From assembly GCF_003334335.1 (NCBI RefSeq), contig NZ_QOWQ01000020.1: a stretch of 64,000 nt of DNA. One strand, 5' to 3'. Shown here piece after piece: positions 10,341 through 26,415 of the stretch (its first letter is position 1; every line of letters begins with the position of its first letter). A program made the position numbers and the translations under genes. This DNA is from Escherichia coli. Its GTDB lineage: Bacteria; Pseudomonadota; Gammaproteobacteria; Enterobacterales; Enterobacteriaceae. The notes beneath the pieces are model-generated. The model was not told where the DNA came from. It saw only the letters and a list, made by a program, of their open reading frames with translations, and ran no database searches.

Positions 10341-10451
10341 AGATGCCGGATGCGGCGTAAACGCCCTATCCGGCCTACATGACGTTGCAATTTATTGAAT
10401 CTGAATGATTTTTTAGGCCAAATAAGGTGCGCAGCACCGCATCCGGCAACG
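10341..10451. repeat. BIME: two inverted REP units between yigE and uvrD
   Basis: gatgccggatgcggcgtaaacgccctatccggcctac and inverted taggccaaataaggtgcgcagcaccgcatccggcaacg, the latter abutting the uvrD stop. Confidence 0.8.
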
Positions 10452-12614
10452 TTACACCGACTCCAGCCGGGCGTATGCCGCCACCAGCCATTTAATACCC
10501 TGGCCCTGAAATGCCACCTGCAAACGGCTATGCTCACCGCTGCCTTCCATATTGACAATGGTGCCTTCACCAAACTTAGCGTGGCGTACGCGCTGGCCGA
10601 GCTTGTAGCCGCTGTCGTTCTCGACCATCGGCGTACCCATCCGCTGATGGCTGACCGGGCGGCTTACCGTGGCGCGCAGGCGCACCTCTTCCACACACTC
10701 TTCCGGCAGCTCGCCGATAAAGCGCGACGGGCGATGGTAAACCTCTTTACCATACAGACGGCGGGTTTCCGCGTAGGTCAGCGTCAGTTTCTGCATCGCG
10801 CGGGTTACGCCAACGTAGGCCAGACGGCGTTCTTCTTCCAGACGCCCGCCTTCATCCAGCGACATCTGGCTTGGGAACATGCCCTCTTCCATACCAACGA
10901 TAAACACCTGCGGGAACTCCAGGCCTTTCGCCGAGTGTAGCGTCATCAACTGCACCGCATCCTGCCAGGTATCCGCCTGCCCTTCACCTGCTTCCAGTGC
11001 CGCATGGGAGAGGAACGCCTGCAGCGGCATTAAATCTTCGTCTTCTTCGTTGTAGCTGAACTGGCGCGTTGCCGTCACCAGTTCCTCTAAGTTTTCGATA
11101 CGCGTCTGACCTTTTTCGCCCTTCTCCTGCTCATACATGGTACGCAGGCCGGAGTCTTTAATTACCCGGTCAGTCTGTACATGCAGCGGCATATCGGCAG
11201 TTTCCTGCGCTAAGGCGTCGATTAATTCCATAAATCGCTGCAAGGCGCTGGCAGCTCGCCCGGCGAGGGCTTTTTCCTGCAACAGCTCACGACATGCCTG
11301 CCAGAGTGTTAACTGGCGATCGCGCGATGTCTGACGTACCACGTCCAGCGTCCGGTCACCAATACCCCGCGTTGGCGTATTCACCACACGCTCAAAGGCC
11401 GCGTCGTCGTTGCGGTTGGCAATCAGGCGCAGATACGAGAGCGCATCTTTGATTTCCTGGCGTTCGAAGAAGCGCATCCCGCCGTAAATACGGTACGGCA
11501 TACTGGCCTGCAATAACGCCTCTTCGAGCACCCGCGACTGGGCGTTGCTGCGGTAGAGAATGGCGCACTCGGCAAGCGCTCCGCCGTTGTCCTGCCAGGT
11601 TTTGATGCGGTTAACCACAAAACGCGCTTCATCGAGTTCGTTAAAAGCGCAATAGAGGGAAATAGGCTCACCGTCCGCGCCATCGGTCCACAGTTTTTTA
11701 CCCAGACGCCCGTTATTGTTTTCAATCAGGGCGTTAGCGGCGCTCAGAATATTGCTGGTAGAGCGGTAGTTTTGCTCCAGACGAATAGTTTCGGCACCGG
11801 GGAAATCATTAAGGAAACGCTGAATATTCTCCACCTGCGCCCCGCGCCAGCCGTAGATTGACTGGTCGTCATCACCGACGATCATCACTTTGCCGGTGTC
11901 GCCCGCCAGCAGGCGGATCCACGCGTACTGAATGTTGTTGGTATCCTGGAATTCGTCCACCAGGATATTGGTAAAACGTTCGCGGTAGTGTTGCAGGATA
12001 TGCGGCTTGTTAAGCCACAACTCGTGAGCGCGCAGCAGCAGCTCGGCGAAGTCCACCAGGCCCGCGCGGTCACACGCTTCCTGATACGCCTGATACACCT
12101 TCTGCCAGGTCTGCTCCACCGGATTACCGTAGCTTTGAATATGATGCGGACGCAGGCCTTCATCTTTCTGGCTGTTGATGTACCACATTGCCTGCCGCGG
12201 CGGCCACTGCTTCTCGTCGAGGTTCATGGCTTTGATCAGACGCTTAAGCAGGCGTAGCTGGTCTTCACTGTCGAGGATCTGGAAATCCTGCGGCAGATTG
12301 GCGTCCATATGGTGCGCACGCAGCAAACGGTGCGCCAGCCCGTGGAAGGTGCCGACCCACATACCGCCCTGGCTCGTGCCCATCAGTTGCCCGATACGAT
12401 GACGCATCTCCGCCGCCGCTTTGTTGGTAAACGTCACCGCCATAATCGAGTATGGCGAGCAGTTTTCCACGCTCATCAACCAGGCGATACGATGCACCAG
12501 TACGCGCGTCTTACCACTGCCCGCGCCCGCCAGCACCAGAAGGTTGCTGCGTGGCGCGGCCACCGCTTCGCGCTGTTTGTCATTAAGGCTGTCGAGCAGG
12601 TAAGAAACGTCCAT
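10452..12614 (-). CDS. uvrD: DNA helicase II UvrD
   Basis: Track ORF 783 aa; known 720-aa protein starts MDVSYLLDSLNDKQREAV (ATG 12612-12614); GAGSGKT Walker A. Confidence 0.97.
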   Translation of the reverse strand: MDVSYLLDSLNDKQREAVAAPRSNLLVLAGAGSGKTRVLVHRIAWLMSVENCSPYSIMAVTFTNKAAAEMRHRIGQLMGTSQGGMWVGTFHGLAHRLLRAHHMDANLPQDFQILDSEDQLRLLKRLIKAMNLDEKQWPPRQAMWYINSQKDEGLRPHHIQSYGNPVEQTWQKVYQAYQEACDRAGLVDFAELLLRAHELWLNKPHILQHYRERFTNILVDEFQDTNNIQYAWIRLLAGDTGKVMIVGDDDQSIYGWRGAQVENIQRFLNDFPGAETIRLEQNYRSTSNILSAANALIENNNGRLGKKLWTDGADGEPISLYCAFNELDEARFVVNRIKTWQDNGGALAECAILYRSNAQSRVLEEALLQASMPYRIYGGMRFFERQEIKDALSYLRLIANRNDDAAFERVVNTPTRGIGDRTLDVVRQTSRDRQLTLWQACRELLQEKALAGRAASALQRFMELIDALAQETADMPLHVQTDRVIKDSGLRTMYEQEKGEKGQTRIENLEELVTATRQFSYNEEDEDLMPLQAFLSHAALEAGEGQADTWQDAVQLMTLHSAKGLEFPQVFIVGMEEGMFPSQMSLDEGGRLEEERRLAYVGVTRAMQKLTLTYAETRRLYGKEVYHRPSRFIGELPEECVEEVRLRATVSRPVSHQRMGTPMVENDSGYKLGQRVRHAKFGEGTIVNMEGSGEHSRLQVAFQGQGIKWLVAAYARLESV

Positions 12615-26257: not shown

Positions 26258-26285
26258 GCCGGCGCTATCGCTGAGATCTGCCTTT

Positions 26286-26390
<105 letters not shown>

Positions 26391-26415
26391 ATCAACCGCA
26401 GGCGGCCGCCGATTT

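Follow-up and report, generated by a model that had tools for sequence, protein, structure and literature searches.

REP units form the commonest family of intergenic palindromic repeats in Escherichia coli. The BIME-1 class is defined by one y and one z1 REP, present in single copy, with a conserved long linker (L) between them (Ton-Hoang et al. 2012, PMC3333891). These L linkers often carry a site for IHF and sit at the 3' ends of transcription units, as stated in the same article, citing Boccard & Prentki (1993). The BIME-2 class combines z2 and y REPs through a short S linker, occurs in tandem copies and is targeted by gyrase (PMC3333891), and genome-wide gyrase cleavage is enriched in BIME-2 elements (PMC6379681). 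REP sequence is also found in naRNA4 (RF02564), a nucleoid-associated RNA derived from REP325.

An earlier note on the locus described here stated that elements of this kind stabilise upstream mRNA, which is correct as a general statement. According to Dar & Sorek (2018, PMC6061677), Rho terminates transcription downstream, exonucleases trim the transcript back, and the resulting end lies just past a stable stem-loop, which is sometimes a REP. A different mechanism was described by Liang, Rudd and Deutscher (2015), as summarised in PMC12306157, for REPs located less than 16 nt from a stop codon, and it involves ribosome stalling, mRNA cleavage and tmRNA. The same summary states that 260 of 496 identified REPs lie within 15 nt of an upstream stop codon and that these were proposed to serve translational regulation. 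A REP adjoining a stop codon is common, not special.

Anatomy and family of the uvrD BIME

The locus lies in a 64,000-nt stretch of E. coli DNA (contig NZ_QOWQ01000020.1), the whole of which is referred to as the window. Over the yigE-uvrD region, the window and MG1655 K-12 are identical by sequence match, and the verified mapping to NC_000913.3 is reversed, with window position x equal to 4010597 minus the MG1655 coordinate. Two genes converge here: yigE (9541-10305, plus strand), which encodes a protein of the DUF2233/phosphodiester glycosidase family and ends in a TAA at 10303-10305, and uvrD (10452-12614, minus strand), which encodes the 720-aa DNA helicase II and ends in a TAA at 10454-10452, read as TTA on the plus strand. 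The 146-nt intergenic region holds two inverted REP units, REP1 at 10344-10378 and REP2 at 10413-10448, which confirms the earlier reading of a BIME between the two convergent genes. The segment 10341-10451 encloses this BIME with a margin of about 3 nt on each side, and the element sits wholly between both stop codons, i.e., it is extragenic. Two mechanically called open reading frames cross the BIME or run antisense to uvrD, one of 99 aa on the minus strand (10274-10573) and one of 181 aa on the plus strand (10395-10940), and no evidence supporting gene status was seen for either.

REP1, the y-like unit distal to uvrD, reads T-GCCGGATGCGGCG-TAAA-CGCCCTATCCGGC-CTAC on the plus strand, with stem arms at 10345-10357 and 10362-10374 and the tail CTAC at 10375-10378. 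REP2, the degenerate z1-like unit proximal to uvrD, lies on the minus strand and reads, from 10448 to 10413, T-GCCGGATGCGGTG-CTGCG-CACCTTATTTGGC-CTAA, its tail being CTAA and not CTAC. The units are inverted, tail to tail, around a 34-nt L-type linker (10379-10412), whose 15-nt core ATTCAATAAATTGCA (minus strand) is common to a second BIME-1 of the window. REP2 is set off from the uvrD stop codon by 3 nt (10449-10451, minus strand), reading CGT in the uvrD sense. The claim that a REP runs right up to the uvrD stop codon is correct insofar as REP2 adjoins it; the two do not touch, as four bases (CGTT) separate the TAA from the first base of the REP2 stem, or three when the REP is taken to include its conserved flanking T.

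A REP is recognised by three traits: a GC-rich, imperfectly palindromic stretch of some 35 nt, the conserved head GCCGGATGCGG and a mismatch inside the stem; REP1 and REP2, as read from the sequence, both have all three. The inverted repeats detected were I1, of 12 nt and 100% identity, between both heads, I2, which is the REP1 stem, and I3, which joins both tails. With up to two mismatches allowed, the window has 12 occurrences of the 13-mer head GCCGGATGCGGCG, where 4.0 would be expected, and none of 100 shuffles gave as many, which indicates that the REP units here are not a product of chance. REPs conserve a GTAG/CTAC tetranucleotide at the tail, a tag needed by the REP-associated transposase. 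Since the orthologous REP2 ends in CTAC in three other Escherichia loci (L007, L008 and L009), the K-12 REP2 with its CTAA is a decayed copy. In its tail arm (10413-10424), the stem also carries two C-to-T changes (TTATTTGG, versus TTATCCGG in other Escherichia).

By its sequence, the uvrD element is an ordinary single-copy BIME-1, in the order z1-like REP2, L linker, y-like REP1, and it is the 34-nt L-type linker between the inverted REPs that places it in this class. It shares with BIME-1 (RIB/RIP) elements the tail-to-tail arrangement of two inverted REPs (presumably one y-like and one z1-like), the L linker of about 34 nt with an IHF-like core, the single copy and the position at the 3' end of a transcription unit. 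It differs from them in the degenerate REP2 of the K-12 type, with CTAA for CTAC and the two stem changes, and in an L linker that aligns slightly better when inverted. The second BIME-1 of the window (26284-26392), ordered y / L / z1-like, is identical to the uvrD BIME at 91 of 115 positions in co-linear comparison. REP1 matches the y-like unit of this comparator at 33/38 positions, and REP2 matches its other unit at 29/38 and the y unit at 28/37; the assignment of REP1 to y and of REP2 to z1 is presumed from this one comparator (26284-26392). Between the L linkers of both elements, the inverted alignment (26/35) is slightly better than the co-linear one (24/38), which probably reflects the quasi-palindromic L sequence, and no further BIME-1 that could serve as an orientation comparator was present in an additional 50 kb of K-12.

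The 111-nt element has at least 40 matching places in each of 5300 records, and all 5426 E. coli genomes match it. In 4787 genomes, at least 80% of the 111-nt query is covered at some place, so that the entire REP-linker-REP architecture, and not single REPs only, represents a dispersed family. A 401-nt query of the locus itself aligns end to end in 3012 genomes.

Within the linker, an IHF-consensus-like core, ATTCAATAAATTG (10388-10400, minus strand), agrees with WATCAANNNNTTR at 12 of 13 positions, and recurs unchanged at 26331-26343 in the other BIME-1. The bare IHF motif is found in the window at chance level (51 matches versus 48 expected), and it would be the conservation of the core within L, not the count of bare motifs, that matters. 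For an element of the BIME-1 class, the DNA-binding protein to be expected is IHF and not gyrase. The earlier wording, "gyrase or IHF", was accordingly too loose: IHF fits the BIME-1 class, whereas enrichment in gyrase cleavage is a property of BIME-2. With BIME-2, the uvrD BIME has in common its REP units, among them a y-like REP; it departs from BIME-2 in its long L, the lack of a z2 REP and the absence of tandem amplification in any sampled strain. The long L linker, in place of a short S, and the single copy are grounds to reject a reading of the element as a BIME-2 bound by gyrase, and published gyrase supplementary tables hold no entries for uvrD or yigE. An Rfam search of 9000-12000 returned only sub-threshold cross-matches of naRNA4 (RF02564) to the REPs. 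As REP1 scored 44.8 bits against a gathering threshold of 59.5, these matches reflect shared REP sequence and not family membership, and a described Rfam RNA family at this site was dismissed on that ground.

RNA folding and the uvrD transcript end

In the uvrD sense, 170 nt of the region fold in prediction at -71.6 kcal/mol (z = -6.0), and in the yigE sense at -59.6 kcal/mol (z = -3.7). The predicted REP1 hairpin has an energy of -21.4 kcal/mol in the uvrD sense and -21.1 kcal/mol in the yigE sense, and the REP2 hairpin reaches -17.4 kcal/mol in the uvrD sense versus -12.0 kcal/mol in the yigE sense. This asymmetry of REP2 arises because its two C-to-T changes remain as G.U pairs only in uvrD-sense RNA and become mismatches in the yigE sense, a pattern which, in these modelled folds, hints at selection on the uvrD-sense structure. 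The entire BIME can also be folded as one long hairpin of -53.9 kcal/mol in the uvrD sense, and in this fold pairing starts at the first base after the uvrD stop codon.

Neither REP has a U-tract behind it in uvrD-sense RNA; the sequence after REP2 is A6, and that after REP1 is AUCUGCGCC. A scan for the terminator consensus gave a single weak match, located inside REP2, and the Term-seq data of Adams et al. (2021) list no mapped 3' end at that match. An intrinsic (Rho-independent) terminator was rejected on both counts.

Supplementary file 1 of Adams et al. (2021, PMC7815308), in which three growth conditions occupy separate tabs, records a single Term-seq 3' end for the intergenic region, which lies on the uvrD-sense strand. 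This end was re-mapped to the window through its printed flanking sequence, checked against NC_000913.3, and marks the steady-state 3' end of uvrD-sense RNA at 10338-10339 (minus strand; MG1655 4000259 and 4000258, plus strand, two listings with about 1000-1100 reads each). Counted from the uvrD stop codon, this position is 114-116 nt downstream, and it lies beyond the foot of the uvrD-distal REP1 by 6-7 nt, so that the whole BIME belongs to the uvrD 3' UTR. The same listing contains no other intergenic 3' end on either strand, with none at REP2 and none in the yigE sense. The earlier note had embedded the uvrD 3' end in the stop-proximal REP hairpin. This part needs correction, as the end is not in REP2 and falls 2-3 nt outside 10341-10451; it is nevertheless close behind REP1, Term-seq gives no 3' end well outside the REP units, and the idea survives in amended form.

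The published table labels this end "antisense yigE", and its "primary" class requires an end within 50 nt of the ORF end (PMC7815308); the label arose only because the end sits more than 50 nt past the uvrD ORF. The end at 4000258-4000259 should be read as the end of the uvrD mRNA, which users of the table would miss.

Further downstream, a bicyclomycin-sensitive region of Rho termination in the uvrD sense has its best coordinate at MG1655 4000389 (plus strand), i.e., window position 10208 (minus strand), inside antisense yigE, with a Rho score of 3.5 and p = 3e-10 (Adams et al. 2021 Supplementary file 2, PMC7815308). Its peak is about 130 nt downstream of the mapped uvrD 3' end, and since 800-nt windows were used, the region is resolved only to hundreds of nucleotides. 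Directly downstream of the BIME, the 50 nt at 10289-10338 (minus strand) are C-rich and G-poor in the uvrD sense, with 15 C and 6 G, and this composition may be described as rut-like.

Term-seq does not tell true termination from processing. The published data, re-mapped to uvrD, place a discrete end past a stem that lacks a U-tract, with Rho-dependent read-through downstream, which is the pattern of a protective stem-loop. The uvrD hairpin thus resembles the REP stabilisers and protective stem-loops of Rho-terminated transcripts (Dar & Sorek 2018; Peters et al. 2012) both in its end a few nucleotides past the stem and in the C-rich tract and bicyclomycin-sensitive region that follow.

It is probable that the BIME-1 in the uvrD 3' UTR defines and protects the mRNA end after downstream Rho termination and trimming, and that the hairpin, not the REP, is what has been kept. 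RNA polymerase coming from uvrD passes through the BIME, as the published bicyclomycin data show, and Rho appears to end transcription over the next 100-200 nt, inside antisense yigE. On the general model, 3'-to-5' exonucleases would then trim the tail and stall at the very stable BIME stem-loop, and the outcome would be the discrete end 6-7 nt past the REP1 foot that published Term-seq records. In this way, the BIME would set and protect the end of the uvrD message.

BIME and hairpin alleles in Escherichia and other Enterobacteriaceae

The K-12 arrangement with the BIME is present in 3012 of 5426 complete E. coli genomes. In 2413 of the 5426, as well as in Escherichia sp. L007 and L010, an extra 300-aa gene lies between yigE and uvrD (for example at L002:544-1446, L003:577-1479 and L004:572-1474); it is absent from the window, at 10306-10343. 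Its product has the SAM hydroxide adenosyltransferase domains PF01887 and PF20257 and an apparent, putative N-terminal signal peptide. No significant remnant of the extra gene was detected in the 38-nt spacer of K-12: local alignments scored 17-22, and the null distribution had its 95th percentile at 20 and its maximum at 24. A third, rare arrangement occurs in strain 504237 (L087, NZ_CP025862.1), which has the extra gene without yigE, in the order corA - ysgD - extra gene - uvrD.

Genomes with the extra gene have, in place of the BIME, a single hairpin with a perfect stem of 13-14 bp, located 4 or 14 nt downstream of the uvrD stop codon (L002:1447-1500, L003:1480-1523 and L004:1475-1518, likewise L091-L096), and this hairpin has no GTAG tail, stem mismatch, L linker or U-tract. 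Either the BIME (3012) or the hairpin (2413) follows the uvrD stop codon in 5426 of 5426 E. coli genomes, and since both haplotypes have one or the other, a hairpin at this site appears to be the conserved feature. Comparison of REP copy number between strains, which the earlier note had suggested, reveals a single REP pair in every K-12-type allele read (K-12 and L088-L090), as in Escherichia L006-L010; the variation found is the replacement of the BIME by the hairpin. Further Escherichia lineages connect both arrangements: the full BIME, the extra gene and yigE occur together in L007 and L010, and a BIME without the extra gene is found in E. albertii, E. whittamii, L006 and L009, with a linker that is long or short. 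Short-linker BIMEs at uvrD are those of E. albertii, L006 and L010.

The hairpin alleles read, 11 in number, differ at stem position 3, where A-T, C-G and G-C pairs occur and O157 has a G.G mismatch, and the UTI89 hairpin has GAAT/ATTC where others have GGAT/ATCC. The substitutions are double-sided and keep the pairing, with energies of -20 to -30 kcal/mol. Compensatory changes of this type in a perfect DNA palindrome can be produced by selection on the RNA, and they can also come from template-switch homogenisation without RNA selection. The right arm of the hairpin with its flank, CACCGCATCCGGC-ATCAGCACC-TTA, is the REP1 head arm in its native context, and the left arm corresponds to the REP2 head. 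Exactly the hairpin sequence would result from deletion between two repeated arms, the REP2 tail arm CACC|TTATCCGGC and the REP1 head arm CGCC|GCATCCGGC, and it may be inferred that the hairpin is a BIME collapsed by deletion between directly repeated arms.

Beyond E. coli, 80 Enterobacteriaceae loci (L011-L084 included) were compared over the first 160 nt after the uvrD stop codon. In 63 of the 80 species no REP follows uvrD, which argues that the REP itself is dispensable, and in most of these REP-less species a well-conserved sequence (TAACTTTCAGAAAAATATCATTATTTTGTAA...) follows the stop codon. A yigE homologue was found only in six Escherichia loci, the other 74 loci yielding none. The REPs of Citrobacter and Salmonella, which start at distances of 2-24 nt from the uvrD stop codon, were placed there independently. 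The two E. coli haplotypes and the compensatory changes suggest that selection would keep a strong hairpin just after the uvrD stop codon and not the identity of the REP.

Alternative roles and the meaning of the hairpin

A stem this near the stop codon (4 nt) may, in addition, delay ribosomes at termination. A translational throttle, in which a stalled ribosome at the stop-proximal stem would lead to mRNA cleavage and to the tagging and removal of part of the UvrD by tmRNA, and so to a lower yield, is a tentative possibility and would be compatible with a role at the 3' end. The stop-to-stem distance of 4 nt falls inside the 15-nt limit of the stop-proximal REPs of Liang et al. (2015), and pairing of the full BIME begins at the first post-stop base. 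Both E. coli haplotypes keep a hairpin 4 or 14 nt from the stop codon, and there are Citrobacter REPs that begin 2 nt after it, but E. albertii is without a stop-proximal REP head and several Citrobacter have their first REP 24 nt away, so that closeness to the stop codon is not a conserved trait of the genus group. The RepRanger supplements contained no uvrD entry, and the literature covered, in which Liang et al. (2015) was represented by its summary in PMC12306157, yielded nothing specific on uvrD with a BIME or REP, or on stalling at or tmRNA tagging of UvrD.

It is unlikely that the element is a selfish or neutral passenger, spread by the REP-associated transposase or by gene conversion to a permissive site, with the 3' end as a passive by-product. 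Such a history would suit the distribution of REPs after uvrD, which is confined to REP-rich genera (17 of 80 species) and differs in REP type and position, as well as the variable BIME structure at the site among Escherichia species, the loss of the GTAG tail and the decay at two stem positions in K-12 REP2, and the large gene presence/absence polymorphism next to it. A passenger is harder to reconcile with the retention of a strong stem-loop within 4-14 nt of the stop codon in every one of the 5426 E. coli genomes and with the compensatory stem substitutions of the hairpin form. The decay of REP2 is, moreover, limited to changes that preserve uvrD-sense pairing, and the K-12-type BIME is nearly invariant across divergent strains.

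Distinctly unlikely is a role at the level of DNA, in which the BIME-1 (RIB/RIP), with its L linker bent by IHF between convergent units, would serve nucleoid organisation or act as a topological barrier and the effects on RNA would be secondary. The IHF-like core ATTCAATAAATTG, identical in the second BIME-1, and the frequent occurrence of IHF sites in BIME-1 L linkers at transcription-unit 3' ends (PMC3333891) agree with such a role, but the IHF motif by itself is not enriched over chance in the window. In 44% of E. coli genomes only the hairpin is left, without the L linker, and E. albertii, L006 and L010 have short-linker BIMEs instead. As the L linker is lost or replaced across strains, the IHF site is not the conserved feature here.

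Very improbable, finally, is direct termination by the BIME hairpin, as a bidirectional Rho-independent terminator or through Rho-dependent attenuation, with 10338 as the true termination site: a 3' end directly after a very stable hairpin, the weak consensus match inside REP2 and the BIME-associated transcription attenuation reportedly described by Espeli, Moulin and Boccard in 2001 count in its favour, but neither REP1 nor the whole BIME is followed by a U-tract (AUCUGCGCC) and REP2 is followed by A6, no 3' end maps to the terminator-like site, bicyclomycin-sensitive read-through peaks about 130 nt downstream, and no yigE-sense 3' end was detected.

The reading of the BIME as a structure that defines and protects the uvrD mRNA end can be extended, in a form that is itself quite improbable. 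In this extension, selection at the uvrD 3' flank would demand a stop-proximal hairpin, and two interchangeable solutions, BIME-1 and collapsed palindrome, would constitute an old trans-species dimorphism. The dimorphism would be tied to the absence or presence of the gene for a secreted SAM hydroxide adenosyltransferase, and the two forms would give different amounts of UvrD, by way of mRNA stability, stalled ribosomes at the stop codon, or both.

REPs, BIME-1 elements and a protective role at the 3' ends of Rho-terminated mRNAs are already known, and the uvrD 3' end was already contained in a public Term-seq table. The difference between BIME and hairpin is a new detail, yet ordinary pangenome variation, and the significance beyond good annotation is small. 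The site marks a gene presence/absence polymorphism. UvrD is a DNA-repair helicase whose dosage matters, and the two alleles form a natural pair for testing the effects of a stop-proximal hairpin on UvrD. The exchange of the BIME for a plain perfect hairpin in 44% of strains argues that it is the structure, and not the repeat, that is needed by the gene.
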